Shown here: positions 5,151 to 60,903 of the stretch, one piece after another
Position numbering within the stretch: the first letter of the stretch is position 1
Layout: the number at the start of each line of letters is the position of its first letter
Assembly (NCBI RefSeq): GCF_006345805.1
Contig: NC_043002.1
Location: 100,130,001 to 100,194,000, forward strand
Reading direction: 5' to 3'
DNA from: Octopus sinensis
Taxonomy: Eukaryota
Length of the DNA stretch: 64,000 nucleotides
Notes under the pieces: generated by a model
Told to the model about the DNA's origin: nothing
Database searches by the model: none
The model's input: only the letters and a program-made list of their open reading frames with translations
Translations under genes and position numbers: made by a program

Positions 5151-6612
5151 ATATTTCAAACACTTTTTGTTTGAGAAAGAAAGTTAACAATTTAGCGGCT
5201 GTTCCGTCAAAAAGTGTAATTAATATACAACATCTAAATAGTTATAGAATCTATATAGTTATAGAATATATTTTCAATTAAAAGCATCGATAAAACTTTT
5301 ACGAACAGAAATTTAAGTAGAATTTCATGTTTATCTAATTTTCGTGTTTTGTAAATCCCTCAATCAATCGATTGATCAAACCATCATTATTCATATATAT
5401 CATATTTATTTCGACTTCCATTGCATCAATTTACCAGATGCCTTCTCCATTGGGTGATTAGCTCATCTGGTTTGGTAAGGCCTCCTCACGCTGCACTCAG
5501 CGTAAAAATAGCATTTATTACTTCAACAAAATATACCAATTATGCTATAGAAGTGCTTCCTAAACCAATAAACCGTAACAATTAATGGATCTCTTTCTTT
5601 ACATCATGTGGCAAGATAGTCTATTAGATTTCTACACTAAATACACTGCACATTGTCAGGTCCAGAACATTAGTTATGAAATGTTCAGTTGTTTACCCAG
5701 CAGCCGCATCACTTTAGAAACAGCTGTTCTATGCTGCTGTTTAAATGAAGTTAAATTTCTCAATCATTAAGAAGAAATATCTGACGAAATGTTACCTAAT
5801 CACACATTTAAAGATTTTCATACATAAAATTTAAAAGCCCCTTTCAGAGAGTAGCAGTAAATAAATAAATCTTCGCTATGAATATTTAGATGAGTTACCT
5901 AAGTACGTATTTAGACAATAATCAAATGTCTCCTAAAGCGACATAAGTAAGTGATAAGTAAGTGGATAAATAAGTAAGATGATAAGTAAGTGGTTAAATT
6001 CTTATTATTATTCCTTTAGTCAATTGTCGTAGTTCGGAGAACTTGCTTAAATATATTATATGACTGACATTAAAATGCCAACGATTATATAACACTGGTC
6101 ATATTTAAACGCAGGTGTTATCTAAACCATTCAATACTCATATGATATTGTCGATGCTAACTGTTCGCAATATACCGGAATGAAATTAATTACAGTACTA
6201 CATTAGAATCAATGTTTACAACTTGAATAGAGGAATGGCATATAAACTGCTACCTTTTAGAAACCGTTAGAAATCTACATACACCACTGAATTGCATAAA
6301 TTGTATTCATCCCCCCCCTGCTCAATATGTGTTTGGTGTTATTTGTCAATATTTAGTAACGTGCTGTCCATTTCACATCGCCAGAGTCGATTTTAGTAAA
6401 TCTAGTACTCATTGTAGGATAGGCGTTATTATTTAGATATTTCGCATTGTCTAAAATATATATATATATATATATATATATCTATATTGTATAGAGGGCA
6501 TTATTACACATAAATGCCTCACACTAAGAGGGACAAAGTCATTACTACCAAAATTTATACTAATCATACCCAAATGCAGTTTTTCAAAGCAAGACATTTA
6601 AAAAATGAATTT

Positions 6613-6670
6613 AGTTCTGTATCACCGTGATTTCACATTCAACTTACGTCTTATGATCATCAGCAGAACT
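6613..6670 (-). ncRNA. Mirror copy of the hammerhead-like motif on the minus strand
   Basis: Reverse complement of 6903-6960 within the palindrome. Confidence 0.65.
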
Positions 6671-6902
6671 GATTCTGAACACATCATAAATAAACTACCA
6701 ACCTTACGTAGCGAAGACGAACAGACAACTGCTCACTCCGGCCAAGCACATGGAATGTTTATAAATCATATATCCGGTAAATGGCGGGCCATTTACCGGA
6801 TATATGATTTATAAACATTCCATGTGCTTGGCCGGAGTGAGCAGTTGTCTGTTCGTCTTCGCTACGTAAGGTTGGTAGTTTATTTATGATGTGTTCAGAA
6901 TC

Positions 6903-6960
6903 AGTTCTGCTGATGATCATAAGACGTAAGTTGAATGTGAAATCACGGTGATACAGAACT
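6903..6960 (+). ncRNA. Type I hammerhead ribozyme-like motif
   Basis: Stem I AGTTCTG/CAGAACT (7 bp); core CTGATGA at 6910-6916; stem II CAT/ATG extended by GAC-GTAA-GTT; GAAA at 6939-6942; stem III ATCAC-G-GTGAT; AUA cleavage triplet. Position 10.1-11.1 is U-U, which is non-canonical. Confidence 0.65.
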
Positions 6961-7216
6961 AAATTCATTTTTTAAATGTCTTGCTTTGAAAATCTGCATT
7001 TGGGTATGATTAGTATAAATTTTGGTAGTAATGACTTTGTCCCTCTTAGTGTGAGGCATTTATGTGTAATAATGCCCTCTATACAATATAGATATAATTA
7101 ATTTGTTCAAAAGAAAAAATTATTTTCGAATTCTTTTCTTTTATGAGGTTTTCACGCTAGCTGCCCGATAATTTCTTGTTAAGATCCCTTATTAAGAGAT
7201 TATCCTTAATTGTTAA

Positions 7217-7219
7217 ATA

Positions 7220-7275
<56 letters not shown>

Positions 7276-7313
7276 GTGTATGTGTGTGTGTGTATAAAGA
7301 TTATATATATATA

Positions 7314-7393
<80 letters not shown>

Positions 7394-7396
7394 TAT
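7217..7396. repeat. (TA)n/(TG)n microsatellite
   Basis: Directly visible. Confidence 0.95.
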
Positions 7397-7638
7397 ACAC
7401 GTGAATATATACATACATATAAAAGCATATGTGTATATATAAGCCAATTTATTTTTAATATTGCAGAAATTTCTTTTTTAGATATCGAAGCAAAATTGGC
7501 AAGATTAAGTTAGGCAACTGTTCAATGGAACTTCCTAAGCTGTGCCCCACAAATGTAAGAGAAGATTCTTTAGGAAGTGTCCTATGAGAATTTCGTTTTT
7601 CGTATAATTGAAATATTTCGAAACGAATCTAATTTAAG

Positions 7639-7686
<48 letters not shown>

Positions 7687-8582
7687 TATATACTTTACAA
7701 TAGACCTTCATTAAATCCAGTTATCAATGAAAAGCTTGCTTTTGCATGTCACCCAACATCATACCTTGTCTATTATTCTCTTGTGTTTTCCAATTGATGC
7801 ATCTGCTTTCCAAATATGGATGTTAATGTATTGTTCATGACATTGTACTATATTTCATGTATTTAGTTAACAAAATAGCATTAATATCATTGAAAGATAA
7901 AATTACAATGAAGCAGTAGAGAAGGTATTCCATCCAATATCTTTTGTAAACTGTCAACCACGATTTCAAAGGCGCATGCTGTGTTTGCGAAAATTGATTG
8001 AAGAGGAAACTAAGTTCAGATTATTGGCGAGCAAACAATGCGAGATATTTTTAGTCTGTGAACATAGTGCCAACTCAGAGTGGCCAGCTAGTCATAGGAT
8101 TTATGTTGCATACACATAGGTTCATTCTGTCTCAGCAGGTGAAATTCTTTCTAAAAGTCACTTACAGCTGCTGTGAGTAAATATTTTTATCGCTTGAACA
8201 ACGAGATTAGCCCAAAGTTAGATTCCTGGAGTGCAGGAATTTTGAGGATACTGGAAGTTACTTTTGTTTTATTTCTTTCTAAAAACTCAATGTGCAGATT
8301 ACTGTACACGTAACATTTGTCTAAAACATTTTTTTATTTTAATACTGAATGAATTATAACGATTCAGTGACGGAAGTATCTATCAACACTTGGGATGAAA
8401 ATAAGACAAGTTATATAAACTAAACACGGATGCTGTGAGTTAATAAAGTTAATAAAGATTACGTTTTCACTATCACAAAATTCAACTTTACACGATAAGT
8501 TAAATTTAACTTTAGGGAATAAAAAGTTTCGGTGTTCCTCTCACATCATACATACATATCTGTTTATACAATTATCGCTGCA

Positions 8583-8610
<28 letters not shown>

Positions 8611-8613
<3 letters not shown>

Positions 8614-8817
8614 ACGGGAAGCTTTATGAAAATAAACAAAAGACGAAGGCAGGTGGAATACAAACAAACAATTGTATTATTATGCCGCTCAGGAATATAA
8701 ATAAAACAAGTCTTTTACGCTTCGAGCCTACGCTCTTCAACAGAAAGATACACAGAGAAGAAACACAGAAAGAAGGAGAGAAAAAAAATGCGTGCAGAGG
8801 CTAGCGAATCAACATGG

Positions 8818-8820
<3 letters not shown>
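8611..8820 (-). mobile_element. Short interspersed repeat in (TA)n with a degenerate hammerhead-like core (Penelope-pLTR-like)
   Basis: Reverse complement of 13495-13710. Contains TTGAAGAGCGTAGGCTCGAAGCGT on the minus strand and has TA runs on both sides. Confidence 0.65.
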
Positions 8821-8864
<44 letters not shown>

Positions 8865-9036: not shown

Positions 9037-9191
9037 AGAGCAATAAGAAAATGGAGGGGATCAATAGGTGGTTCATCAACTTTTAGACATTACATTATGC
9101 CAATTCATTTATTTATTTATTTGCTAAAATAAATAAATTGACGTAATATAAGTTGATAAACCACCTATTGATCCCCTCCATTTTCTTATTG

Positions 9192-9195
<4 letters not shown>
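9037..9195. repeat. About 160-bp fold-back with 37-bp perfect outer arms
   Basis: AGAGCAATAAGAAAATGGAGGGGATCAATAGGTGGTT ... AACCACCTATTGATCCCCTCCATTTTCTTATTGCTCT, with imperfect inner pairing. Confidence 0.9.
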
Positions 9196-9260
<65 letters not shown>

Positions 9261-9414
9261 TATATATCTATATATATATATTCAGAGTAAGCATGCAAAA
9301 CGAGGACGATGAAAACCTTGAAAACATTTAAGAATTCTTCAACATTCGAAATTGAATGGAATTTTGTCTCTTAATAAGTACACCATACCAGACGGAATTC
9401 CAAATGAGAATATT

Positions 9415-9647
9415 ACTCTTATTCTTTTACTTGTTTAAGTCATTTGACTGTGGTCTTGCTGGGGCACCACCGTTAGTCGAGCAAATCGACCCCAGGACTT
9501 ATTCTTTGGAAGCCTAGTACTTATCTTATCGGTCTCTTTTTCCGAATCGCTAAGTTACGGGGATGTAGACACACCAGCATGGCAGCATGGGTTGTCAAGC
9601 GATATTGGGGGGGGGGGGGCAATTGCAGACACACAAACATATACACA

Positions 9648-9682
<35 letters not shown>

Positions 9683-9845
9683 GACGGGCTTCTTTCAGTT
9701 TCCGTCTACCAAATCCACCCACAAAGATTTGGTCGGCGCGACGCTATAGTAGAGGGCACTTTCTCAAGGTGTCACGTAGTGGGACTGAATCCAGAACTAT
9801 GTGGTTGGTAAGCAAGCTTCTTACCACGCAGCCACTCCTGCTCCT
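9415..9845 (-). mobile_element. tRNA-derived SINE, family 'A'
   Basis: Reverse complement of the 25471-25884 copy, with an internal TA/CA microsatellite. Confidence 0.88.
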
Positions 9846-13494: not shown

Positions 13495-13707
13495 GATCGC
13501 CATGTTGATTCGTTAGTTACTGCACGCATTTTTTTCTCTCCTTCTTTCTGTGTTTTTTTTTCTCTCTGTGTATCTTTCTGTTGAAGAGCGTAGGCTCGAA
13601 ACGTTAAAGACTTGTTTTATTTATATTTCCTGAGCGCCATACTAATACAATTGTTTGTTTGTTTCCCACCTGCCTTCGTCTTTTGTCTATTTTCATAAAG
13701 CTTCCCG

Positions 13708-13710
<3 letters not shown>
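13495..13710 (+). mobile_element. Short interspersed repeat with a degenerate hammerhead-like core (same family as 8611 and 60817)
   Basis: TCTTTCTG-TTGAAGA-GCGTAGGCTC-GAAACGT-T-AAAGA at 13573-13610; ends AAAGCTTCCCGTTA(TA)n. Confidence 0.65.
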
Positions 13711-13742
<32 letters not shown>

Positions 13743-20521: not shown

Positions 20522-20890
20522 TTGTGGCTGTGTGTTAAGAAGCTTCTTTCTCAACCGCGTTGTTCTGGGTTGGGTGTCACTGCATGCAACTCGGGCAAGT
20601 GTCTTCTACTATTGCCTCGGGCCGAGCAAAGTCTTCTGAGTGGATTTGGTAGACGGAAACTGAAAGAAGCCCGTCTCTGTGTCTGTGTGTTTCTGTATGT
20701 GTCTGTGTCTCCCCCACCCGTCATCACTTGGCAGTTGATGTTGGTGTGTTTATGTTCCCCGTAACTTAGCTGTTCGGCAAAAGAGACCAATAGAATAAGT
20801 AATCGGTTTACAAAGTATAAGTCCTGGGGCCGATTTCTTTAAGGCGTTGCGCCAGCATGGCTGCAGTCAAATGATTGAAACAAGTAGAGG
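20522..20890 (+). mobile_element. SINE family 'A', diverged
   Basis: GTGGCTGTGTGTTAAGAAGCTT...GGATTTGGTAGACGGAAACTGAAAGAAGCCCG...CAGTCAAATGA. Confidence 0.85.
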
Positions 20891-20917
20891 AAAAAAAAAA
20901 CACACACACAAATATAT

Positions 20918-20986
<69 letters not shown>

Positions 20987-22759
20987 TTGCGTATGCGTGT
21001 GTTGACACGTGTCAGTGTGACTATTTATTTGTATTACTATGAAATCACTTGTCGCTATATTGAAGAATCGTTTTAATTCAGTTAGGGTCATTTTAATTAT
21101 GACTGTTACCTACTAATTCGTTTGAAATGAATTTCACAAAATCCAAGAACGAATCTAAAGCATTTAATGAATTTTGTTCGCAAATTACCTGTTTCCCATC
21201 AATCACGCCTTAAAGCATATTGAATACACAATGTCTGAAGGCAAATGCATTCTTCTTTTGAGTTTCTGAATTTCTAAAATAACAAAGAATTGGCATTCCT
21301 TTTGAGAGAATATCTTTGAGACTTAAAAGATGCGTTGTTATTTTTTCACCTCATATCAATTCTAATCATACAGACCGAGTTATACCATGGAAAGCCTTCC
21401 AGATGTGAAAATTCATTTTTTCCTAAAATATATGAAAATTGTACACCATACTGTACACAATTCTGTTGTACAATAAGGCTACCCTATATAAAAGGGCTTA
21501 GGCTGTAGCAAATTTTATTTTCAATTTATGAGAATTAAGCAGGACAATTGCCAGAGATTTAGGCTATATGATTAAATATCTTGAAGTATTGTATTCCAAG
21601 TTCAAGTTATAGACAAGTCAAGTTAATCTTGTATCTTTTACTCAAAAAGTAGTGAATAATGTCAGTATTATACGGAGGAAACCATTGTAGATAATCTTTC
21701 TCACTGAGAAGTTCCTCCTTTGGTTAAGAATCAGTACGAATATTTTTCACTTTTCTTATTTATTTATTCATTCATTTTATATATTTTTCTTTCTTTTGTA
21801 AGGGAAGGAAAATACAGTAAATAACTCTAATTGATTACTGGAAAATATGCTTATTTATGCGGGGAAATGTATTGAATTTTATACAACTGTGTCTACGCTA
21901 CATAAACCATTTTGTAGAGAATATGTATTCTATTAGAAGGTACTTTAACCCTGATTAATACAAAGTTTGGTTTTCTATTCATTAAAGAATCTTTTGCAAA
22001 TTTTTCAATTTCAGTTTTTTTAATATATTCTTTTTAAGTAATTTAAAATGAATTTAAAACATGTAATTTAGTGAAAATCGGAACGGTTGGTGTAATTAAA
22101 TTTCTACTGCATATAAATAAGTTTTTAGGTTTGCATATAACACACACAAGTACAGACACAGACACACACAGAGAGACACACATACACAGAAACACACACA
22201 CATATATATATATATATATTTATATAGAGATTCAGATGAATATGTTATTTAAATTGAGACACCAGAATTTAGTACGGTATTATACAATTTCAAAGTAAGG
22301 TGATTATAATCAAAATAAGCAACAAAGATATCCAGAGGTAATGCTGTACGATCGTATCATGCAACTCCATTTAAAAATCTCCTAAAATCTCCAAGAAGTT
22401 AAGGAGATAGGCAAAGAACATGGTGTCTCACTCCAGTTTAGAAGGTACTGAACTTTCAAGATATACATTGTTACAGACTCCCATTCATGTGAAACCACTT
22501 ATTCAAGTTCAAATCATTGATGCAATTTTATACCAATTGCTATTTTTACTTTTGTATGTTACGATTATATTATACTTTAGTTTGATTTTAATTATTACTT
22601 ACTACATATAATTCAACTGTTATTATTATTTTTATTGTTAAAGTGAAAGCATCTAACATAAAATAGAGAAATGTTTTTGTTTCATTTTTAACACGTAATA
22701 CTGAAATAGTGGAGAAGATATGATATTGCTATGGACTCGCTCTAGGCAAGAAGTTTAAC

Positions 22760-22944: not shown

Positions 22945-24490
22945 GGTTTCGGCCATTATTGGCCCAGGCCATGTCTAACTTAATAGCACCACCTGGTGAA
23001 GTCTTTCAAGTCAGAATTTGGGCACTATGGCCCACTCAAGTAGAGAGTTATTGTTTACAGAGACATATCCGGGTGTATGGGGTTTATCCGGGATTTCTTG
23101 AAGGAATCTGTCCAAAGACTTCTTGAACCCTATAGGGTCAGTTTCTGTTTTAATGTGTTTTGGTGTAATGTTAAAGAGAGCGGGGCCAATTGAGGTGAAA
23201 TAATTGTGCCGTATTGTTGTTATGAGATGAGAGTGCGATTTTTGTTTTGGGCGGATGGCACGGGGCCCAAGCCTGGATGTACCTTAAAGGTGATGCCAAC
23301 ATCATTTGGGCAATGCTGATGGAATATTTTCCACATCATGCAGATGATGTAGCGCTCACGACGACGTTGGAGAGAATAGAGTTTTAGCTTTTCTAGCCGA
23401 CCCCAATAGTCGAGGCCTGACATGCCATCTATCTTTTTTGTGATTGCCCTTTGAGGTGCTTCAACTTTTATGATACCTTGTATTGTGTGGGGAGACCACA
23501 GTGGACAACAGTATTCAAGGTGGGGTCGGGCAAAAGTGGAGAAGAGAAGGATAATGGTGTGGATATCTCTCGACTGGAAAGTTCTGAGAATCCAGGAACA
23601 CATTCTGCGGGCCATGTCAACTTTGGTGTTTATATGAGTGGCCCAGCTTACGTTGTTGTCCACAATTACTCCCAAGTCTCTGATGTTGTTGGACGCCGCG
23701 AGAGTTTCACCTGAAGGAAGGGAGTATGGGAGTTTCAGGGCACCCTCTTTTCCAAAGTGGATTAGCTCAAATTTATCCTCGTTCAGCAGCATATTGTTTT
23801 TTTCTGCCCATTGGATAACAGCCAGTAGATCTGACTGAAGGCATGTCCGGTCACTCGCCTCATTTATGACCTTCTGTAGCTTGGAGTCATCTGCAAAGAT
23901 TTTTATGTTGCTGTGCTTGATGATGTCATTAATGTCATTAATGTAAATGATGAAAAGAAGTGGGCCCAGCACAGTGCCTTGCGGAACGCCACTACTGACT
24001 TTGGCTGGGCTTGATTTTACCCCTTCAACTACAACATGTTGAGATCTGTCTGTCAGGAAACACTTAATCCATTTCAGTAACTTTCCAGAGACACCAATGT
24101 TGGATAGTTTTTTCAATAGGATCTTGTGATCGACCCTGTCGAAAGCCTTACTGAAATCAAGGTAGATGACATCGGTGTTGGAGCCCTCTCCCAAAGCTCT
24201 CAAAATGTCCTCAAAGTGATGCAGGAGCTGCGTTAGGCAGTCCCTTCCATTACGGAACCCATGTTGGTTGGAGATCAGCCGTCTGTTGCTTTCCAGAAAT
24301 TGGGTTATTCAAGATCTCACAACCCTCTCAAATACCTTGATGATATGAGAGGTGAGTGAGATCGGACGGTAATTCACTGCAAGGGACTTGTTTCCCTTTT
24401 TGAAAACTGGGACAACAGACTGGGACAGAAGGTGTTTTGGAATATAGACAGCATCCAGTGAGTTTCTCCACCGATTAGCAAGGGGAGATG
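22945..24490 (-). mobile_element. 5'-truncated CR1-group LINE (RT domain to 3' UTR) with few frameshifts
   Basis: ORF 23220-24203 contains YLDFSKAFDRVDH, SGVPQGTVLGPLLF, IFADD, RPHLEYC and LYSLQRRRERY. NYRPISLTS lies upstream in 24309-24509. Confidence 0.95.
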
Positions 24491-25470: not shown

Positions 25471-25882
25471 AGGCGTAGGAGTGGCTGTGTGGTAAGTAGC
25501 TTGCTTACCAACCACATGGTTCCGGGTTCAGTCCCACTGCGTGGCATCTTGGGCAAGTATCTTCTGCTATAGCCTCGGGCCGACCAATGCCTTGTGAGTG
25601 GATTTGGTAGACAGAAACTGAAAGAAGCCTGTCGTATATATGTATACATATATGTATGTGTGTGTATATGTTAGTGTATCTGTGTTTGTCCCCCCCACCA
25701 TCGCTTGACAACCGATGCTGGTGTGTCTACGTCCCCGTCACTTAGCGGTTCGGCAAAAGAGAGGCCGATAGAATAAGTACTAGTCTTACAAAGAATAAGT
25801 CCCGGGGTCGAGTTGCTCGACTAAAGGTGGTGCTCCATCATGGTCGCAGTCAAATGACTGAAACAAGTAAAAGAGTAAAAGA

Positions 25883-25884
<2 letters not shown>
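25471..25884 (+). mobile_element. tRNA-derived SINE, family 'A', near full length
   Basis: A box GTGGCTGTGTGG, B box GGGTTCAGTCCC and a (GTAAAAGA)n tail running into (TA)n; at least 5 copies in the window. Confidence 0.9.
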
Positions 25885-25953
<69 letters not shown>

Positions 25954-32200: not shown

Positions 32201-33667
32201 GCGCTTCAGAATGTTTTGTTGTTATCACTGAATACAAACGTAGGTTCACTGTAGATATATGAGAAACTTGCTTCATAAAGGTGACAACCATATAATAGAG
32301 GAAACAAGTAAGTCTAGGTACAGTTGAACTGCATTATAACAAAAAAAGTTATTCTCTTGGAGTTTCAGTATGTTAGAATACGCAGTTACTTTTATATATA
32401 TTTTTAACTTATTCGATCATAAATATAAGAATATACTATTCCATAATAGAAAAATAATAAAATGAGATTAAACGAGTTTGCTAATGGATACTGTCGCTGA
32501 AAAGAATCAGAATGGTATACATAAAATGTTGTAGATAAAATTGAGTCTGCAAAGTCGTGTTTTCTGAATCATAAAATTCCCCTGTGTAAATGACCACAAT
32601 CCTTCTTAGTGACTATGCAATGCTACGATTTCTATTCAGAATTATTCATAGTTCATAGGAGTTGAGCGAGACATATTTCTGTAAATATGACAGATTAATA
32701 TGGTTTCAGAAAGCCTACAGAAGAATTAAGTAGTGCTATACTGAAGCATAGTCTTCTGCTTTTGGTCTTTTTCCAAAATAAACAAAGATATAAAATTTAG
32801 ATTCAAGCATATTATTTAATATTTGGAATAGCGATTAGTAACTCAGGGTTTCAGGTATAATCGTTTAGTAACATAGGTTTTACCTATGGTAACTTAGATC
32901 GACACCACTAGTATGGTGATGTGATAAATTTCAACCCTGGAAATATTAGAATTTGGAAACTAAGACCTTTATTACATTGGTTCAAGAATATATTTACGGC
33001 TCGCTAGTTCAGTTTGCAAACACGTGTTTCTGGTCTCAATCCCACCTCTTGATTACATTTATTCTATAGTGTCAGTTTGTCCCTCATCACCACCAACGAG
33101 CTTCTGAGTGCAATTGAGTAGACGGAAATTGTATGGAAGCGCATCACACATGTGCACGTGTCAGTAGCAATGGATATCAGCAATGTAGCAAACATTAGCG
33201 AAAATACGGGTAACCGGTATTTTTTGAGCGAAACCCATTGTGTTAATTGCCTTTTTCTAAGGTACGGACATAAACAAATAGAGACCTATAGCCGATGAAG
33301 TTATTATTCCCCAAACACAATACTATTTCATTTGCTATAAATGAACATTACACTTCACCTTAATAACCTCTTAAGTAGTATAGCGAAAACTAAAAATAGA
33401 TTATTTCTAGAAATATATCATTGTTATTTCGTTATTTCTTTAATTCGGTACACTGTTTATAACAAATAAACATATAGATTTCAAAATGCAAAATTATGTT
33501 TAAAAATAATATTGTATTGTTGAAATTCTAAAGACTCGGTGATGGCAATTGGAAACTAAACCAGTCAAATACTTGTTTCACTTTATTAAATTTGAAACAC
33601 TAAGATATGTCTGTGAATAGAGAGAGATGCAATACCTTATGATAATATATTATTTGTGTTCTTAATT

Positions 33668-34165
33668 CATAACTCTCGTTATCTCCTCAAAGACATACAG
33701 CATCTCGAAAGAGTCCAGAAGCTGGCTACCCGCATGGTTCTTGGTCTCAAGAATTTGTCTTATGAAGAAAGGCTGAAGACGCTCGACCTTTATTCTCTAG
33801 AAAAACGACGACGCTGTGGAGATCTCATTCTTGCTCACAACATCATAAGCGGAAAGTGTAACCTCTCGAAAGAGCTGTTCATCACTCCTGCTCAAGAGCG
33901 TCGGCTGCGGGGTCACTCCGAAAAGCTCTATCTGCGACGATTTAATCTCAATCGAAGGAGAGGGGCTTTTCTCCGTCCGAGTTGCGAATCCGTGGAATAA
34001 GCTGCCAGACGAGATGGTGAAGATGCCGACGACCGCTCGGGTCAAAGTCTCCTTTGACCTCAAGTGGCCTGAACTCTTTACATGAACACCACCCTGTACA
34101 TAACTCCATGTCCCCCTACATGGCCTTGCTTTTTGCTTTTGGAGCCAAAAAATTAACTAACTAAC
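33668..34165 (+). mobile_element. 3' end of a CR1/L2-group LINE
   Basis: KDIQHLERVQKLATRMVLGLKNLSYEERLKTLDLYSLEKRR..GDLI and RLRGHSEKL, then a frameshifted VRVANPWNKLP; (AACT)n tail. Confidence 0.9.
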
Positions 34166-35824: not shown

Positions 35825-38205
35825 AACTAGATTCTGGTGATATGTATATATACAGAAGAAAAGTGTCTGAAGATAAGCGAGAAAGATAAGTGATATATGG
35901 CGAACTGACTAGAAATTTTAAATTCAATGGCAACAAAATTATTGCATAATTTCCTCGAAAACCAAGACCAGAGAGGGACTGGAATTCTCTAATGAAACTA
36001 TTTCAATTAATTTACAATTCTAATGTCTTCTGGAAAGTAGGAATAGTTAGGAATTGTCTAATTCCATTTTACCTTTCATTAACAGTAAAGGTCTGTAATA
36101 ATGAATTATCTTTATTACGGTTGGCTAATTTGCGAGCAATGTGAACAACATTGGGCTACAGTTTACCGTCTAAAATAAATAGAAATTTAGGGCGATGTAT
36201 TCTTTGAAACAATGTATCAAATGTATCAAATTATTGCATTATCGAGGTTATTCATCTTTTAATACGTTTACAAATATGTTTTATTAACAATCATGGTTAA
36301 ATAAAATTCGGTCAGAATCTGATTTATGGATACTCTTTTAGAAGATAGTTAATTAATTCAAAAATATATAAATTACAGAGGATTTACTATCAAACCTTAA
36401 ATGTATTGAAGTATGGTAACTGCAACTTGATTCCGCAACCGGTTTCTTTTTATTCATGGTTTCGGTGGTGTAACATTTATTTAAGAAATTAGTACTTAAG
36501 AAAACTCTGAACACAATAACTTTAAGACAAGCTCTCTGTATTGCAATTATAGAGTACAGAAGTAAAGTTGTAAAGCAATAAAAAAAATGTGTGATTCAAA
36601 ACCGCTGTGGAAATGTTACTTCTCAGATAGCTACTTTAACATCACGTGCACTATAATGTCCTTATAGAATTATAGTCCGCTGCATACAATCTAGTCAGGT
36701 TTTCAATGTAAGGGTAACTACTTCTCTTCCAGTTATCATGTGAAGAATGAGTGGTTACTGCATTCTCCATTATGATTAAGATTTGTATTAATTCATAGCT
36801 CCACATTTCTTCTAGCTTAACTATATATTTAAATGCATTGGGTCTATTAAATGTGAAAAAATAAACCAATATTAAATCGTGCAAGGTAAACGAAACGAAT
36901 ATTCTCGACAAACTCATTGTCCGCCAAATCGTTATCTACAGATAATATCATTTCCTTTGCCTTACACTGTTATGTCAACATTTCCAACATCCTGTTGCTT
37001 CATTTACTAAATGCGGTTAAGTTGTCTGTGGTGAATCAGAAAGCAGTTATTTCAAAAAGTATGGTAGCTATTATTTATAAAGAAATGTTAATTAGTTTCA
37101 TTTATATGTTAATCAGTTGTGTATAGTCTTATTTACTTTTTGCTGCGCGTTATAATTAATCATTATATTATTATGTGGTAATTAACTAATCCAATTCTCT
37201 TGCATCTGTAGAATTAGTCATAATTCTTAAATTAAATTTTCAATCTATTCAAAACGTAAGCTTTCATGTACATTGTATTGTCTCTGTATTCATTACAACT
37301 GATTCACCAAAAGTATAATCAGATTCATGAACTATTATTTAATTTTGTTTTCTAATACTTAGCATTAAACAGATCTTCGATTTCCATAGTTACTTTACTC
37401 AGGAAAGGGTTATTTTAAATGTGTATTAATATCTTTGTAGCGTGAAATTAAACGACAAGGAATGTTGTCATTTGTCTTCGTATAAAAGAACTTTTTTTTT
37501 TTGACATTTAATTTAAAATTCTATAAACATAATCACATTTAAATTTCAATGTGAAATATGTATTTTTGCTGCCAATATTCTTCAAAGAAAATTATTTCTT
37601 TATTTATTTATACAATGCGTAAATTCATTTAGTGGGCGGCGAATGTACAAGAAGTGATTTTGATGTTTTCCATCGGATTACTAGCGTAAGAAAACTAAAC
37701 TTCAATGAGTTATACTGTTTTGAGTTCAAATTCCCCAGACAGAACATATGCATTATATACTTCAATTTATGTCGAAGGTACAAAACAGAGACTCACTTAA
37801 CTACTGCTATTCATAATAAACTACAATAATCTCCAATAAATGTGGTCGTGTTTAAACATTTAAAGCGGTTATTCTTATTTTTTGCCAGTAGCCTCATTCG
37901 AATATTTCACTACACCACGCGGCGTACTGCAAAATAATGTTCCGAAAGTATTGTTATTGCTATGTAGAAATGTTTAGTGTTCGTAAATCATTAAGTGTAT
38001 GGCATAAAGCCCATTCATTTTAGATGGGAGAGGGTTTTACATTATTAGAGGTTCATTCTGATGATTAGGTATAGATTATAACTAATGCCAGATAACTGAA
38101 GGTGTATTTCAGATGGGAACTGCTTTCATTAGGGCTACGTTTTAGATATATATACGCGTGTGTGAGTGTGTGTATATGTGTGTGTGTTTTAAATAAAATA
38201 ACTAC

Positions 38206-38403
38206 GCCAAGGCAATTTGATATTCCTAGAAATTAAAAATGTGGTCTTACAGCTGTTTCGGGGAAATAAATGATGTCCCATTTAAAAGAGCTTGAAGCTC
38301 TTTTAACTAGTCTCTGATGATATGATATCATTTATTTCCCTGAAAAAGCTGTAAGACCACCTTTCTACTTATAAATGTGCTAGGAATATCAAATTGCCTT
38401 GGC
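38206..38403. repeat. About 200-bp imperfect fold-back with a central 25-bp hairpin
   Basis: GCCAAGGCAATTTGATATTCCTAG / CTAGGAATATCAAATTGCCTTGGC; GTGGTCTTACAGCT / AGCTGTAAGACCAC; centre TTAAAAGAGCTT-G-AAGCTCTTTTAA. Confidence 0.9.
38310..38357 (+). ncRNA. Type I hammerhead ribozyme relic
   Basis: GTCT-CTGATGA-(stem II)-GAAA-AAGCTG-TA-AGAC. The opposite arm preserves GGGA..TCCC-CGAAACAGCTGTA-AGAC, giving a canonical consensus with a GUA cleavage site. Confidence 0.65.
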
Positions 38404-38587
38404 CTCGTTATCTTATTATAGTTAACAAATACACGCTCACACAGGTCCTGCGCTAGACTCCTCACTCATGCTATTATTGAACCGAGAGCTTAAGAGCGGT
38501 CCTTCCGTAGCGCTTACATAGCCTTACTTGCCTTTTGGGTCTCCTTGTTACAAAACATCTTACACACACACACACACACACACACAC

Positions 38588-40906: not shown

Positions 40907-40937
<31 letters not shown>

Positions 40938-40938
<1 letters not shown>

Positions 40939-41332
40939 CTCTTTTACTTGTTTCAGTCATTTGACTGCGGCCATGCTGGAGCACCGCCTTTAGTCGAACA
41001 AATCGACCCCGGGACTTATTCGTTGTAAGGCTAGTACTTATTCTATCGGTCTCTTTTGCCGAACCGCTAAGTGACGGGGACGTAAACACACCAGCATCGG
41101 TTGTCAAGCAATGCTAGGGGGACAAACACGGACATACAAACACACATACACACGCACATATATATATACGACAGTCTTCTTTCAGTTTCCGTCTACCAAA
41201 TCCATTCACAAGGCATTGGTCGGCCCGGGGCTATAGCAGAAGGCACTTGCCCAAGATGCCACGCAGTGGGACTGAACCCGGAACCATGTGGTTGGTTAGC
41301 AAGCTACTTACCACACAGCCACTCCTGCGCCC
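40938..41332 (-). mobile_element. SINE family 'A', near full length
   Basis: Highly similar reverse complement of 25471-25884. Confidence 0.9.
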
Positions 41333-46612: not shown

Positions 46613-46646
<34 letters not shown>

Positions 46647-47203
46647 GAGTGAGTGAGCAGTGCATGCCCTCAAAGTGACACTGGAGTAAACTATACGAAG
46701 GCCAGTATATCCATTATGACTGCCCGTCTGATAAGGGTACACCAGGTACATGCATCACAACCATATGTGCGCGACATTGTGATCTCATATCAAGATAAAC
46801 AGCGCATGACCTTGCAGGTGGGGCCCAGTTAGAATTTTCTTCTGCTCGAGTAGCCCATCCGGCTCAAAAGGTCCCTGAATAAGGATTGTTTGAGGATGTT
46901 GAGCGAACCACCCTTGTTTCCAAAGGTGAATTATCTAAACCGCTAAGAATTCCTCTCAACACATGGCTATGATGCTCCCCCACTACTTCAGCTCGTGATC
47001 AGGGATGCACATATCGTCAGCCACTAAGGGACATGGTCGCCTAGTTAAGATCAAACAACTGACAAGCAAATCTGTGGTATTGAGCAGAATATTTGCTGTG
47101 GCCCATCTTTTATACCAAGACAAAACAATGTACATGATAACACTTCCAATCAGTTAAGATCAAAAGCCATGAGAGCCACTGTCTGGTACTTCATCAGGGC
47201 ATT
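46647..47203 (-). mobile_element. About 557-bp non-coding element bounded by (TAA)n, copy 1 (LINE 3' UTR- or SINE-like)
   Basis: Direct repeat of 47276-47834 with trinucleotide tracts at both ends. The strand is inferred from the (AAT)n tail. Confidence 0.75.
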
Positions 47204-47212
47204 CTTCTTCTT

Positions 47213-47243
<31 letters not shown>

Positions 47244-47275
47244 TTATTATTATTATTATTATCATCATCATCATT

Positions 47276-47834
47276 GAGTGAAAGAGCAGCGCATGCCATC
47301 AAAGTGACACTAGGGTACAAATATACGAAACCCAATATACTCATCATGGCTATCCATCTGATAAGGGTACACCAAGCACATGCATCATAAACATATGTGC
47401 GAGACATGGTTACCTCATATCAAGATAAACAGCACATAACCTTGCAGCTGGGGCCCAGTTAGAATCTTCCTCAGATCAGGTGGTACATCCGAATTTAAAG
47501 TTCCCTGAATATGGTTTGTTTTAAGGATGAGGAACAAAAAGCCCATGTTTCCAGAGGTTAATTATTCAAACCCCAAAGAATTCCTCTCAACACAGGGCCA
47601 TGATGCTCTCCCACTACTTCTGCTCGGGATCAGAGAAGGATATATAGTCAGCTACTAAGGGACATGCTTAACAAGTTAATATCAAACAATTGACAAACAA
47701 ATCTGTGGTACCGCGCCGAATATTTTCTGCAGCCCATCTTTTATACCAAGACAAAAACAATGTACATTTTAATACTGTCAATCAGTTAAGATCAAAATCA
47801 ATGAGAACCACTGTCTGGTACTGCTTGAGGGAAT
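47276..47834 (-). mobile_element. About 559-bp non-coding element, copy 2
   Basis: Co-linear with copy 1 over its full length, with many substitutions. Confidence 0.75.
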
Positions 47835-47856
47835 CATCATCATTATTATTATTATG

Positions 47857-47904
<48 letters not shown>

Positions 47905-48649: not shown

Positions 48650-51457
48650 GTATGTGTTCATCATTAGCTACATTATATTTAATTATCCATCTTTTCCATT
48701 TTGTCTGCCGGGGCCATGAGAATGTTTCTTACTAAAGATATATAAACAGGAATGAGTGTATAACTTTGGAATAAATTTAGTTGTTATCATCGTCACCCTA
48801 CAACTATGAAATATCAGCTGTTTTGCATGAACGGTTAAATGAATGAGAAATTAGTATAACGGCAAATGAAATTACCTTTGGGTTTGTATTTTCCTGATAA
48901 CTCTAATAACAGTTACCAGATTTTATTTCTCTTGGCGATATCTTACGACGTCATTGAAATTAATCGATGCTTTATGCCCTTTCATATTTTTATACGTGTT
49001 CCTACTTACATTCTTCAGAACAAATATAGTTTGTGATATTTTTCCTAGGCTGACATCTCTATCTTTTATGTATTCCTGAAACTGTTATGCATCAGCGTTT
49101 CAATCTCAACATTGATTACACTATGCCTACTCCATCAAATACAATTTCGTACAGGATGTGCGGTTCTCCGAATAATCTTTCTCCATCTTAGACTTTAAAT
49201 CGCTTCTTAGAAAGCTTTTCATGATTAGTAATGAAATCGAGTTTTGCAATATTTTCAGTGGATACTAAAATATTAGTGAAATTTTCTCTCAGCAACTTTT
49301 AAACGAATTCACCCTTTCATAGCAAAAACTTTGCTTCACTTAAATATCTTTTTCTTTGCAATATTCATGTGTCAGTCATGAATTTTACACTTTCCGACAA
49401 AAAAATAAATAAATAATAAAAGAAGCTCGCGTCTTCCAGATTGTCAAAAGCGCTTATCTAGTCACGACACTGCAACTATTATAGTCCAAATTTTAATATC
49501 TCCTCGAAAATTACGCTCATATGACAGTCACTTAATAAAATCATGTAGATATATACCAGAAAATTTGCACTACTATACTTATCTGAAACATCTAGCAATG
49601 ATGGAATCTCTATATACTCATTCGTCTTACTAGACTTAGCAGCCAAAGCTTTCGTAGATTACAACCTACTATCTTCAGAAAAATACATATCAATAATGAA
49701 GACACGAGTACACAACGTTTGATAAAGACTGGGTTGTAACTGTTGCAGTTATTTGATCACAGGTTTGGTCGATCATACTGGCATGGACCTAAACACGAAA
49801 AAAAATCAATATTTAAGATAAAAGTGAATAAGCTCTGCAGACTAAGATGTTAATGATTTGAATATGCGAATGGTTTAATTCCCAAACACCATTGTAAGAA
49901 ATTTAACCAAATAAAATATTTGTAAAAGCACAAGTGCAGTCGAAATTCTCGTATTTCACACAACATGTTATGAAACAAACCTCTGTGAAGGTCTCACTAT
50001 ATGTGTTGAAAGAAGAAAACTTGAGTCATATATTCGGTTTATATTTGACATGCTGAGTACTGATGCTCACTGTGTAAATAGAGTTGAAGAATTGCACTGA
50101 CGAAAGTTACAACTTCACAACATGTCACTGTCCTACACTATTTTACAGAAACATATAACTAATCACTAACATAAAAAAGTTGTATATTGATACATTAGAA
50201 AAGAACAAATCAGCAAGGAGTACCGGAGGTCTAGGAGCCGTACATGATAGTAGAGAAGACGCCAATTTTTCCGAAGACATGTCTCAAAAAATCACCCTGT
50301 GACCTTATATGCAAATTTGGGTCACCTATATTCTTTAATGCGCTAAAACAAGTTGCCTTAATATGCACTACTAAAATTGGGCTGCATCTAATATTCCTGT
50401 GCGCTTTTTATGCCATCAAATAAACTATAAGTATAGGGTCTAGTTACCTTGCATTTCCTTGACCATTTTCTTTCGCATGCAATACTTACAATAAACATAT
50501 CTGATTGAGGGATGTATTACTTCCTCGCCAATTATTCAACACATATCTTAAACTAATCTAAGTATACTAAAAATATGTCAATGAGTACTTAGGGCTACTT
50601 TTGATTTGCTGAAAACCAAATTTGACTACAAATGAATTTTGCAAGCATATTTTACGATCTACTGATTAAAAGGTTCTCATGTAGCCAAACACACTAAAGC
50701 GATTCTCTCGTGAATGAAAGAAAGCAATGGGAAATATTAAAATCGTGGTGAAAAACAAAACATTGCACCCTTCTGTGAGTGTCTTTAGGTCTATATGTAC
50801 ACATACACGCACACACACATTATTGATGCCATAAGAAATTTATAACTTCAGAGTAAGTGTGGGATAGTTTTTGCGTGAGGGGAGAAAATTTGTCTCAAAA
50901 TACACATAAAAAACTATAAATAACAGCTAGGAAATGATGGACTGAAAACAAAGTCCCTTTTAGATAGGAAAGTTCCACGGGCAGACTCCGGATATCTTTC
51001 TCCGAAAGGTTCATATCATATAGCTTTGAGAACTTTGAGAAGCAATTTCAAAAATGAATTATATATCTGTGTGTGTGTGTGTCACAAATTAAATAAACGA
51101 TAAGGTTGCAAAATAATAATGTAAGGAAATTCATTAGCTTGTAGTAACAATAAGTTACAATGCTCTGATAATTAAAAGTTTGTTTATTACAATATATGTT
51201 CGCTTCGGAGCTTTGGTGATGCACAAGAACATAGATACAAACGAATAAAGTTTGTTGTGTAACATTTTGTTCCGTTGTCATTTATTTAATTTCCTATTTC
51301 ACTGTGAACTCGAATGACACCTTTTCCTGAAGAACGTGTATATCACTACACCACACCACCTCACGATACACGACCATACCACACATCATATCACACACTA
51401 CGCACACACTAACACTGACCACTTGCCAGCCCCACACCATCATCCACACATCTACAC

Positions 51458-51557
51458 NNNNNNNNNNNNNNNNNNNNNNNNNNNNNNNNNNNNNNNNNNN
51501 NNNNNNNNNNNNNNNNNNNNNNNNNNNNNNNNNNNNNNNNNNNNNNNNNNNNNNNNN
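51458..51557. other. Assembly gap (100 N)
   Basis: Run of N. Confidence 1.
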
Positions 51558-53315
51558 GTGTCCTCAGTGTCTGTATTGCCTGTGAGACTTTTGTATCATC
51601 TGCATAACTTGTGATCGTGGCTCTCTGCGTGGCTGAGGGCATGTCTGAGAGGGCCATTATGAACAGTAGTGGTCCCAGAACAGTGCCCTGCGGAACACCG
51701 CTCACTATTTGCGTGTTAGTGAAAGTGGCCCCATTGGCCACTACCACCTGACTTCTATCTTTCAGAAAGTCATGAAGCCATTCTCCCAGTTTTCCAACTA
51801 TGTTGAGATCACGCAGTTTGTGACATATCATTCCATGATCGACTTTATCAAAGGCCTTTGCAAAGTCGAGATATATGACTTCCACATTTGAGTGGTTGAG
51901 CAGCCGTTTCAGCACCCAGTCATAGTGTTGTAGGAGCTGAGTTAAACAGCTTCTCCCTGGTCGGAAACCATGTTGGGTGTCGGGCAGCAAGTCATTTTCT
52001 TCAAGGAAGGTGATCAGCTTCCTTCTGACTATTCGTTCCATGACCTTGCTGATGTGTGAGGTCAGAGAGATAGGTCTATAGTTCTTGGCTTCCGCTCTGC
52101 TACCTCCTTTATGAATGGGGCATATTTACCTTCCTTCAGTTTTCTTGGAAGTTTGCCAGCTGCAAGGAAGCTCTGAAAGAGGAACTGCAGTGGTCTTGCT
52201 AGGACTCTCTTACATGCTTTTAGGAGGATTGCGGGAATCCATCGGGGCCAGTAGCTGAGTCTGTTTTCATTTCATCTATAGCCTTGATTACATCGTCATC
52301 CTTTATATCGATGTAATCTATCGTCGCCGCCTCTGATTTTATATCTGCAGTGGTAAAAAAGTCAGTTGGATTGGTGATTTGGAGATGCCCAAGGGGTGGA
52401 GTGAAAACACTCTTGAATTGCTCATTCAGTATTTCACTTACCCTCATTGGTTTTCCTGTAAGTGTGCCATCCTTTTCGAGGAGTGGCCCTATTCTACAGT
52501 GCATGGGAGAGTTTCATGGGAGAGTTTCAGACATTTTTCGATTTCCAACAGTTTTATTTTTAGGCGGGACTTTTCACTGCTTTCAATCTGTTTGTTTAGG
52601 CGATTTGAAAATTTTGTACGCCGTCTCATTAGAATTTTCCTCTCTCTGGGGATTTTGTTCTTGTGTACAGTGGCCTTTCTCTCTGGGACATATTTGTAGC
52701 ATATGGCTTGCATTACAGACATGAATTGTTGAAGTTTCACGTCGATGTCTGGCGAGGAGAGACATTTAGGCCAGTTTTGTTTGAGGATCTCTTTCTCAAT
52801 TTGTTTCCAGTTTGCCTTATGGTAGTTCAAGCTGGAAAGATTCTGGGATTTTTGTAGGCTGCATGTCCGTGCTCTCTTTTGGCCCGTACATGGTCAGCTC
52901 TATCATGTTGTGATCCGAGAGTAGTGTCGGTGTCACTTTCACATTATGGATGAGATCCATGTCATTTGTGAAGCAGAGATCCAGTGTGTTACCTGCCCTG
53001 GTTGGTTGGAGTATTACCTGCTCCATGTACAGGGTGTTGATGAGGTTCAGGAGGGACCTCGCCTGTCCTCGTTCACATCTTGTCATTCCTGGGAGAGAAA
53101 GGCCCTCGGGCCAGCTGACATTTGGCAGATTGAAGTTTCCCATAAGAAGTACACTTATGTGTTGTTCTAATGTGGTTAGAACTTCTTCTATTTTTATAAG
53201 GCAGTCTTCAAACTTGCTCACATGGCTTGGGGCATCTGGAGGGCGGTATGTAGCACACACAACTACATCAAGTTGCCTAATATGTACAATTAGTGTGTCA
53301 CACACCGAGTTTGAG
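51558..53315 (-). mobile_element. CR1-group LINE ORF2 fragment (part of the APE endonuclease through RT), frameshifted, running into the gap
   Basis: APE motifs [19 protein letters not shown] and SDH; ATGPDG; RT motifs QHGFRPGRSC, YLDFAKAFDKVDH, SGVPQGTVLGPLLF and YADD. Confidence 0.95.
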
Positions 53316-53321
53316 TATGAC

Positions 53322-53331
53322 AGTATATATG

Positions 53332-53384
<53 letters not shown>

Positions 53385-53893
53385 GTATATATGTATATAT
53401 ATATATATATGTATGTGTATATATGTATATATATATATATATATATGTGTATATATGTATATATATATATATGTATGTGTATATATGTATATATATATAT
53501 ATGTATGTGTATATATGTATATATATATATATGTATGTGTATATATGTATATATATATATATGTATGTGTATATATGTATATATATATATATAATGTATA
53601 TGTATATATATGTATATATATATATATGTATATGTATATATGTATATATGTATTATATATATGTATATGTATATATATGTATGTATATATATTATATGTA
53701 TATATGTATGTATATATATATATATATGTATATGTATATATATGTATATGTATATATATATATATGTATATGTATGTACATGTATATATATGTATATATG
53801 TATATATATATATATATGTATATATGTATATATATAATATATGTATATATGTATATATATATATATGTATATATGTATATATATATGTATATA

Positions 53894-54868: not shown

Positions 54869-55030
54869 AGCATGGAGTGGCTGTGTGGTAAGAATCTTGC
54901 CTACCAACCACATGGTGCTGGGTTCAGTCCCACTGCGTAGCACCTTGGGCAATTGTCTTCTGCTATAGCCTCGGGCCGACCAAAGCCTTGTGAGTGGATC
55001 TGGTAGACAGACAGTGGAAGAAGCCCGTTG

Positions 55031-55068
<38 letters not shown>

Positions 55069-55287
55069 CGTGTATATGTTTGTGTGTCTGTTTGTTCGTC
55101 CCTCCCCCACCATCCCTTGACAACCGATGCTGGTGCGTTTACGTCCCCGTAACTTAGCAGTTCGGCAAAAGACTCTGATAGATTAAGTACTAGGGTTGCA
55201 AACAATGAACTATGGGGTCGATTTGGGCGACTTTAAAGTCGGTGCTCCAGCATGGCCGCAATAAAATGATCGTAACAAATAAAAGAC
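54869..55287 (+). mobile_element. SINE family 'A'
   Basis: Co-linear with 25471-25884. Confidence 0.88.
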
Positions 55288-56379
55288 TAACGTAAACAAT
55301 GAGACAGACAAACAAATGGCGGTATACGTTCGTGTACGTCTTTTCCAGTGTGAATCCGAAGTGTCTTAGCTAAGACAGCAATCAACAGTGTGAGGAGAAT
55401 TGTAGTTAGCGATATGATTGGTCTTATACCCGATCGCAGGATTACATAATCATAACCATAAATTCGTGTATTTACATGTGAGTGTGTTATGCACACTGCG
55501 TCATGTTTCTCTTTTGTATACTTTCTACAACATATCTACTTTGACGTAATTCTCCTGTAATCAGTCATTCTGCGCTAACCTTCAATACAGAACTTAAGCA
55601 ATTTTCTTCTTTTACTAAACACTTAATCGTATAATATATGGTGCAATGAATCTGGTTCATAGCTTTGTTAATGTTGCAATATGTTTACTTGGACTACAGA
55701 GCATTGCCATTCAGTTTCTTCATTGTTTATGATCGGGAATTGAATTATTTTCGTACGGTAACATCTATTGATTACATATGACTAAACAACAATTGATGTA
55801 TATACTTATAATCATAAAGCATCTATAAGTGAATTAGATATCTTAAACATCAGACCCAATTACTAAAACAGGATTAAGTAATGTGCGTATTTACATTGTG
55901 GATTTTCCTATGTAAATATTCCCCCACTTTCTCTGCCTATATTTATAGATATACGGTCTGTAGTATTACCAATCTATATAGTTTGTACTTTTACCAGTGT
56001 CAATCTTTATATGAACCTAAGTTCATTTCTGTTTAATTGCTCGTATGTAGGTGTATCCTCGTAAATATGCATCCGATCTTGATTATGTACGCGTTTATAT
56101 CCTTGAGAACAAAGAAATTATGCGCTTTATTTTTTGCATATGATTAAATATATTTGACGTATGGAAAATTTATTATCGTATAATGGATGGAAACTGTCTC
56201 CATCAATCTTTCAGCTAAATGAAGAAATCAGAGTTTGAAAGTCAATCTTCAGACCGGAAACTGTTCTGGTCGAAGTAAACGTTAATTAGGTAAATCTTTA
56301 AGTGGAACATCTATCACTGAGAATACACAACGAAGCTGGTAGCTCGTATTTGATTTTAACTCTTCAATTATAGAGGTTC

Positions 56380-60330: not shown

Positions 60331-60814
60331 CCACAGGCTGACATTGGTGATAATGAATTATAAAATAGTAAGTATTGTCCCTCATCGCCCTTTTAATAAT
60401 CATTCCACCACTGCAATAGTCAGCATTTTTTGTGGTAAGGACGTACTCCTACAATATTATGATTCTTATTAATTTTCTAATTTACTCCTCTTGAAATTGT
60501 TTGTTATGTATTCGAATTGTACCGTGTATGCTTAGAAATCGTCTGTAAAGGTGATCAGGCTCATTATTCTCCGTTCTTTTCTTGTCCTTTTGTTTTTTCG
60601 AACAAAGTCCTCAGGAATGCAATTTCACCTGAGAATATGAAAAAAAAATAATTAGCATACTTAATTTCGCCTTCAGGAATCCTGCTATTTAACCAGAATT
60701 TCAGGAATGCATTACTTCCATAAAATGAGTGATTCTTGTACACACACACACTCACACACACATGTATATATATATATATATAATATATATATATATATAT
60801 AATATATATATATA

Positions 60815-60871
60815 TTGTTCGTTTGTTTTCCACCTGCCTTCGTCTTTTGTCTATTTTCATAAAGCTTCCCG

Positions 60872-60875
<4 letters not shown>
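60815..60875 (+). mobile_element. Terminal fragment of the 8611/13495 repeat family
   Basis: TTCCACCTGCCTTCGTCTTTTGTCTATTTTCATAAAGCTTCCCGTTA lies between TA runs. Confidence 0.8.

Positions 60876-60903
<28 letters not shown>

Follow-up and report, generated by a model that had tools for sequence, protein, structure and literature searches.

A hammerhead-bearing palindrome of Octopus sinensis as a probable truncated insertion of a retrozyme-type repeat with two fixed ends

We analyzed a window of 64,000 nt from the Octopus sinensis genome (the whole stretch of DNA considered here), which contains a near-perfect palindrome lying between TA repeats. This palindrome is very probably a truncated insertion of a young, non-coding tandem repeat of ~480 nt, of the non-LTR retrozyme type. 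Two-arm insertions of this family almost always combine one copy that ends at a fixed site, A, with an inverted copy that ends at a second fixed site, B. A retrozyme with Penelope-type insertion marks is a known kind of element; what is new is the countable A+B pairing with a single haplotype per insertion and a 126-nt tail.

The palindrome and its repeat family

The geometry given by the first-pass annotation was confirmed from the letters of the window. The two arms (6477-6785 and 6788-7096) have 309 nt each, enclose a GG loop and show a single mismatch (6580/6993), and the TA microsatellites said to bound the unit are present on both sides (Table 1). A self-comparison of the window showed that arm pairing ends abruptly outside 6477-7096 and that the flanks are not mirrored. 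The extension of 120 bp on the right is indeed unpaired, but it is not incidental, as it corresponds to the fixed interval between the two end sites of the family. The A arm of the window stops 4 nt before the modal site-A position 434, and the locus carries less than one monomer unit per arm. No open reading frame (ORF) of 120 aa was found across 6477-7217, and no second copy of the unit elsewhere in the 64-kb window.

Table 1. Features of the palindrome and its surroundings, in positions of the window
Feature	Position	Strand	Basis or remark
Left (TA)n target microsatellite	about 6456-6476, TA run counted to 6487		sequence
B arm, monomer positions 477-480 + 1-308; outer (3') end = site B	6477-6789	-	
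Type I hammerhead motif, predicted cut after 6620, core at 6663	6613-6670	-	mirror of 6903-6960
Head-to-head arm junction	6786-6789		2-nt GC overlap 6788-6789; inner ends 477 and 1, gap -2
A arm, monomer positions 1-430; outer (3') end = site A	6788-7217	+	
Type I hammerhead motif	6903-6960	+	core, GAAA, stem III read in sequence
Predicted hairpin directly upstream of site B (B ~7096)	7055-7076	+	predicted fold
Tail, site B-to-site A interval, on one arm only	7097-7217	+	
Predicted hairpin directly upstream of site A	7167-7204	+	predicted in families A and D; most copies of family B have a shorter form
Right (TA)n target microsatellite	about 7217/7218-7397		sequence

A genome search with 6788-7216 resulted in 175 matches from the best 40 of 1,086 candidates. 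Among the 150 matches listed, identity was 93-100% and many lay in head-to-tail arrays, whose period of ~480 nt consists of the 429 nt of the query and a ~51-nt spacer that is absent from the window. The unit is therefore this head-to-tail monomer and not the palindrome, which had initially been taken for the element itself; the palindrome would be an integration by-product rather than a functional unit, and it is ordinary within its family. Copies are dispersed and range from monomers to multimers, with arrays of up to 9 or more units and, at the family level, one type I hammerhead per tandem unit. An exact 29-mer from the hammerhead motif has 579 copies genome-wide, a lower bound, while its reversed-pattern control has 0, so the motif is not a chance match. 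Patterns that join the A end or the B end to TA gave 322 and 327 exact matches, respectively (controls 0), the B-end pattern also matching some internal units. With at least 579 hammerhead copies, the family thus comprises some hundreds of insertions. The description of the element as young, non-coding, TA-targeting and Penelope-linked, with a conserved hammerhead motif, is supported.

Related families were also detected, including family B (~78% alike to that of the window, family A), family D (72%) and one further copy (66-72%). The circular monomer is predicted to fold better than 30 shuffled sequences (z -4.6 in family A and -5.9 in family D), and hairpins are predicted directly upstream of both end sites.

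In the available text of two papers (PMC7229834; 10.64898/2026.07.22.740005), metazoan non-LTR retrozymes are likewise non-coding tandem repeats of a few hundred nt, low in GC, with one type I hammerhead per unit, a well-paired predicted circle and dispersed monomers to multimers. The window's family has the same tandem units of a few hundred nt with a hammerhead, no coding capacity (no 120-aa ORF) and a GC content of 33%, its ~480-nt monomer being slightly above the 150-450 bp quoted for retrozymes in 2020 (PMC7229834). By contrast, inverted two-arm insertions, tails and TA targeting are not described in the available main text of these papers: the words 'inverted' and 'microsatellite' are absent from that of PMC7229834, and in that of 10.64898/2026.07.22.740005 'tail' is absent and 'inverted' occurs in a reference title only. 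The window's family may share the self-cleavage and the circular RNA of retrozymes, the indirect signs being the conserved hammerhead, the uniform arrays and contigs, from a run that is RNA by guess, across the unit boundary and the cut site.

The hammerhead motif

The hammerhead descriptor has two matches in the 64 kb, 6903-6960 and its minus-strand mirror, and the type I motif reported for each strand is present as described, both in the sequence and by descriptor. On the plus strand, stem I is formed by AGTTCTG and CAGAACT, CTGATGA (CUGAUGA in RNA) lies at 6910-6916 and GAAA at 6939-6942, and the near-palindromic, self-complementary stem III (6942-6952) leads to an AUA site with a predicted cut after A6953. 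The base of stem II in the window's family is U.U instead of the usual G-C; the G10.1-C11.1 pair is thereby absent, whereas it is G-C in family B and A-U in family D. The same U.U occurs in axolotl HHR_Amex2, which cleaves (PMC7229834). An Rfam search, suggested at first pass as a check on the motif, returned no hammerhead match at E<=5 on 6000-7800 or at the gathering score in the window, and otherwise gave hairpin and microsatellite noise only.

Across families, position N7 varies freely (U 77, C 67, G 25, A 16) and the remaining core is retained. Among 189 locus-variant rows, from a search that demanded the core within one mismatch, with 2 loci having none and overlapping loci counted twice, CUGANGA was present in 185, GAAA in 184, and A or C at N17 in 188. 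Stem I differs among families A, B and D, its pairing being preserved by compensatory changes; over 28 types, 80% are paired vs 66% after shuffling (shuffle maximum 79%; kinship not controlled). The first-pass reading had depended on genomic copies keeping the CTGATGA/GAAA core and the stem covariation, and both are retained in this comparison. Taken together, the conserved core and the compensation seen in stem I from family to family speak for a putative ribozyme under selection.

For the isolated hammerhead, an inactive fold is predicted to be preferred (-13.3 vs -8.7 kcal/mol), and stem III self-pairing is predicted at -11.9 kcal/mol. Such a predicted self-pairing stem III suits cleavage as a dimer. 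The hammerheads of Penelope-like elements (PLEs) with palindromic helix III (PMC4209133) are alike in having a type I motif and a self-complementary stem III suited to dimer cleavage; the available text of that paper also describes dimers and opposite-strand pairs, with dual hammerheads 100-700 bp apart in Schistosoma, and circular templates are proposed. In the retrozyme preprint, one of nine tested dimers cleaved (10.64898/2026.07.22.740005), which calls for caution about activity in the window's family.

Two arms, two ends and one haplotype

To the window and 17 loci from the genome search we added 40 loci taken in positional order by the hammerhead pattern, and the two end patterns supplied another 80 (of 84 such places on contigs C1-C3); all were mapped on the monomer. 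The two-arm junctions were head-to-head with 3' ends outward in all 101 cases, four of which were cut by the edge of the fetched stretch. Of the 97 complete junctions, 95 were A+B (A ~434, class limits 424-446; B ~308, class limits 270-320), giving the inverted head-to-head copy and the tail at one end that mark PLEs, and there were no A+A and no B+B junctions. The two others comprised one A end with another end and one internal piece of a broken locus. The 95 junctions represent 94 distinct loci, L165 being a local duplicate. Nearly all A ends (94/95) fell at 428-434, and 85/95 B ends at 301-312. When only the loci found by the hammerhead pattern, which fixes neither end, were considered, 29 of 31 junctions were A+B, and TA lay within 12 nt of 53 of 58 free ends. 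Single arms accounted for 43 more cases (22 A, 20 B and 1 other), and L153 showed no arm at the mapping thresholds. The same anatomy was observed in all 16 distinct two-arm loci of family D (30 loci fetched) and, by eye, in ~11 of 20 in family B. The interval between A and B is 126 nt and is a Penelope-type tail. No strict rule of one tailed plus one tailless end, and no two-arm anatomy in retrozymes, was found in the openly available main texts searched.

Symmetric palindromes form a subclass. To within 10 nt, symmetry holds for 25 of the 95 junctions, where 20,000 permutations gave 6.1 on average and 16 at most; all 25 are among the 50 junctions with sub-monomer arms and none among the 45 longer ones. 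Their centres often lie on short natural palindromes. The lengths of the two arms are correlated (rho 0.61 over all junctions; 0.25 with p 0.09 in the 45 longer ones). Both the junction position and the arm lengths differ between loci, and B arms reach up to 7 units. The junction scars consist of microhomology (42), blunt joins (13), inserts of 1-3 nt (13) and inserts of 4-20 nt (27). Among apparent B-only copies, four retain a 12-20-nt stub of the A end, and some six are bordered by TA left and right. Inner arm ends are weakly enriched near the hammerhead cut (19 vs 10.8 expected, raw p 0.015), an enrichment that is not robust, the interval having been picked after the first sample as one of 17 bins and positions 209-240 being equally enriched.

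The two arms of a locus differ at 20 of 1,550 comparisons (1.3%; 36 variable columns), vs 26,882 of 126,394 (21%) between loci, with a permutation minimum of 15%. Tandem units within one arm are similarly uniform (42/6,645 differences), mosaic arrays are few (L110, L022), and 39 haplotypes were distinguished among 51 well-covered loci. The combination of uniform arrays with many haplotypes suggests a single-monomer stage in every generation, such as a circle formed from cleaved RNA would provide; the uniformity within loci could be increased by gene conversion or by polishing of the assembly.

Formation of the insertions

Retrozymes, including circles, are described in PMC7229834 with PLEs as likely mobilisers, and are considered non-autonomous PLE derivatives in 10.64898/2026.07.22.740005; in the available text of both, mobilisation by PLEs rests on co-occurrence and phylogeny. 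Endonuclease-positive PLEs (PMC8557442; PMC3846280; PMC11167929) resemble the window's family in head-to-head inversion, a tail at one end only, tandem copies and hammerheads upstream of ends, and the (TA)n bias is shared with the PLEs Naiad, Hydra and Neptune (PMC8557442). Unlike them, the window's family has no ORF, and its tail measures 126 nt and is strictly paired with a tailless end, whereas the PLE tail of 30-40 bp, often at one end beside an inverted 5' copy, is described as optional (PMC8557442). The same source terms the formation of tandem and inverted PLE insertions undefined, and PMC11722881 in its available text adds nothing on inversions.

We consider it fairly probable that a truncated retrozyme insertion combined with Penelope-like copying from two ends explains the observations as a whole. 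A Penelope-like enzyme, the likely mobiliser of the repeat, would cut (TA)n. The hammerhead, probably acting as a dimer, would resolve multimeric transcripts into monomers, and ligation would close these to circles. On the same RNA template, one broken end would prime at site A and its counterpart at site B, and reverse transcription round the circle would generate uniform tandem units. The two cDNAs would be joined at their inner ends through microhomology or templated-insert end joining. Where both copies stopped at the same place, presumably on a linear or nicked RNA, a near-perfect palindrome with a 126-nt tail would result, as in the window. The observations from which this scheme starts are the monomer, tandem arrays, TA flanks, outward arms, one A and one B end, and one haplotype per insertion. 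Its central step may well be correct: each end of the TA break would start reverse transcription at a fixed site of its own, both sites lying on a single and probably circular RNA. L1 twin priming is comparable in that cDNA synthesis on a single RNA starts from the two ends of the target break and yields an inverted product; in contrast, the window's family has fixed internal start sites and arms that overlap in sequence, each of up to several units.

Priming from both ends is favoured because in 29 of the 95 junctions neither arm could have been copied from the other and in 8 the arms share no monomer position. In work with a purified PLE protein, both strands of the target were cut and extended, with two internal start sites that delimit the tail (PMC11167929), and this extension of both strands counts for the same reading. 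According to the available text of that work, the protein is predicted to be dimeric, hammerhead cleavage is not needed in vitro, and the start site does not differ between strands, so that strict A+B pairing is not predicted by it alone; its tail measures 30-40 bp. The restriction of the symmetric class to sub-monomer arms and the correlated arm lengths are points against priming from both ends, as they would fit fold-back with deletion too. The scheme as a whole is also weakened by the lack of a matching autonomous element among the candidates scored, by the weak enrichment of inner ends at the hammerhead cut and by the inactive fold predicted for the isolated hammerhead.

The main rival is fold-back followed by central deletion, which we regard as unlikely although it accounts for much. 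An A-primed cDNA would snap back, copy itself to site B and join the other target end, and long palindromes would later lose their centres asymmetrically. This would explain the single haplotype of each insertion, the symmetric short class (25/50 sub-monomer, 0/45 longer), the correlated arm lengths and the end-joining scars; symmetric centres on short natural palindromes and a TA-like site B are also in its favour, and head-to-head palindromic Penelope junctions have been read as self-priming (PMC3846280). However, the copy would have to pass the internal B sites of B arms of up to 7 units and yet always stop at the last one, with A+A at 0/97, and in 40/95 junctions the B arm is longer than a copy of the present A arm allows. 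B-only copies with TA on both sides and the 12-20-nt A stubs would need deletions that halt at or just before the end, and the extension of both target strands in vitro (PMC11167929) also stands against it.

Retention of the palindrome for a host or element function as hairpin RNA, whether as a Dicer or ADAR substrate or as a switch silencing its own ribozyme, appears very improbable. A read-through transcript would fold into a duplex of ~310 bp, and family sequence is present in sequencing data: 20 of 24 listed runs contain the stretch or part of it, nine being RNA by guess, with shares near 0.4, from three studies. Nevertheless, junction position and arm length vary by locus, and the copies are young and dispersed. 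The role in dsRNA, editing or dicing suggested at first pass had been deduced from geometry. In run X13, RNA by guess, contigs cover the family and cross the unit boundary and the cut site, the unique flank of the window is absent, and no A>G change is listed, a contig-level and hence weak observation.

It is scarcely conceivable that the inversion at the window locus is an assembly or library chimera. No piece spans the palindrome centre among those listed (2,230 further pieces lie outside the list), as a chimera would allow, but the flanks are not mirrored and the same A/B anatomy recurs with different junctions at 94 distinct loci and in sister families. Outside the assembly, end B is confirmed by contigs of X1, X5 and X13, in which the match stops at 7096 and TA follows. 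On the left, X1 and X2 cover the flank to 6445, halting at the TA repeat, and X5 and X13 lack it; these four runs were compared as contigs only, and their summed depth gives no copy number.

TA-targeting MITEs exist, and long inverted arms with TA flanks would suit one, but a DNA fold-back transposon or MITE with a chance hammerhead-like motif is highly implausible here, given termini that are A and B rather than identical terminal inverted repeats, variable inner ends, single-arm copies, arrays of 9 or more units and a hammerhead with compensatory change.

Returning to priming from both ends, a wider proposal would make PLE integration an ordered two-ended reaction, in which a dimer of the protein, seated on one circular RNA with its ribozyme, primes one end of the break at A and the opposite end at B, and each copy may roll round the circle. 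We give this extension even chances. If true, the ordered two-end rule would explain the tail, inverted copy and tandem arrays of PLEs, and the structure of the insertions would provide direct evidence for the use of PLE machinery by animal retrozymes. The family-level A+B pattern bears on the open mechanism of PLE integration. With its hundreds of short and young insertions, in which haplotypes can be scored and both ends are fixed, the family allows competing models to be compared by counting. An RNA of 480 nt would also make a small substrate for the in vitro assay that already exists.

Penelope-like elements and other repeats

Linkage to Penelope reverse transcriptase (RT)/GIY-YIG ORFs, for which a check was proposed in the first-pass annotation, did not emerge: no end homology was found in the best 131-150 candidates per search. 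These were the best 150 of 5,029 candidates scored for PF01541 (30 loci), the best 131 of 18,189 for a Neptune-type RT, the best 150 of 9,475 for a Poseidon-type fragment and the best 150 of 4,838 for a third PLE type, and 28 longer stretches were examined in addition. The clade labels (Neptune- and Poseidon-type) are our assumption from sequence motifs, not from a tree. Among the PLE loci examined, there was no autonomous element with ends matching family A, B or D, and no ORF with RT and GIY-YIG lies in the unit or continues from the arms in 120 loci. Two strong matches considered as partners (L283 and L289) proved to be separate neighbouring retrozyme copies. Intact TA-flanked Neptune-type ORFs of 781 aa with RVT_1 and GIY-YIG are present and are partner candidates only.

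Several further observations were made on these loci. L081-L085 and L269-L272 represent young Neptune-type PLE families with intact ORFs of 781 and 784 aa, an upstream ORF, TA-flanked ends and, by eye, a hammerhead-like motif with a U3-A8 core variant near the end; the Neptune-type copy in L082 has a tail of ~35 nt. In a further young PLE-type family (L322, G000:C16:8969586-8973095), the open frame reaches 1,042 aa at most, and the standard hammerhead was not found downstream of it. Further unrelated hammerhead-like motifs with palindromic stem III occur at L083:5064-5759, near 5018 in L081, and in L090, L113, L110, L165 and L190, and another long inverted element lies beside TA repeats among the same loci, pointing to more such families in the genome. 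Different retrozyme families or copies are stacked in one TA tract in L027 (G000:C13:29946401-29949831) and L183.

Other repeats were noticed in the window as well. Five copies of a ~430-bp dispersed repeat (9410-9845, 20524-20989, 25472-25910, 40910-41331 and 54874-55290; 69-90% alike) have a tRNA-like head and TA at the end; the repeat is probably a SINE, with 164 blast hits among the fetched loci. LINE-type remnants lie at 23220-24308 (-), with an RVT_1 domain, 33617-34000 (+) and 51409-53400 (-). A tandem pair of ~630-bp units at 46613-47903 (82% alike, with trinucleotide repeats between) and two older imperfect palindromes at 38192-38417 (73%) and 9037-9195 (77%) contain no hammerhead by descriptor. 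A ~200-bp repeat with (TA)n on both sides is found at 8583-8821, 13496-13739 and 60814-60905 (92-98% alike), with 32 hits among the fetched loci.
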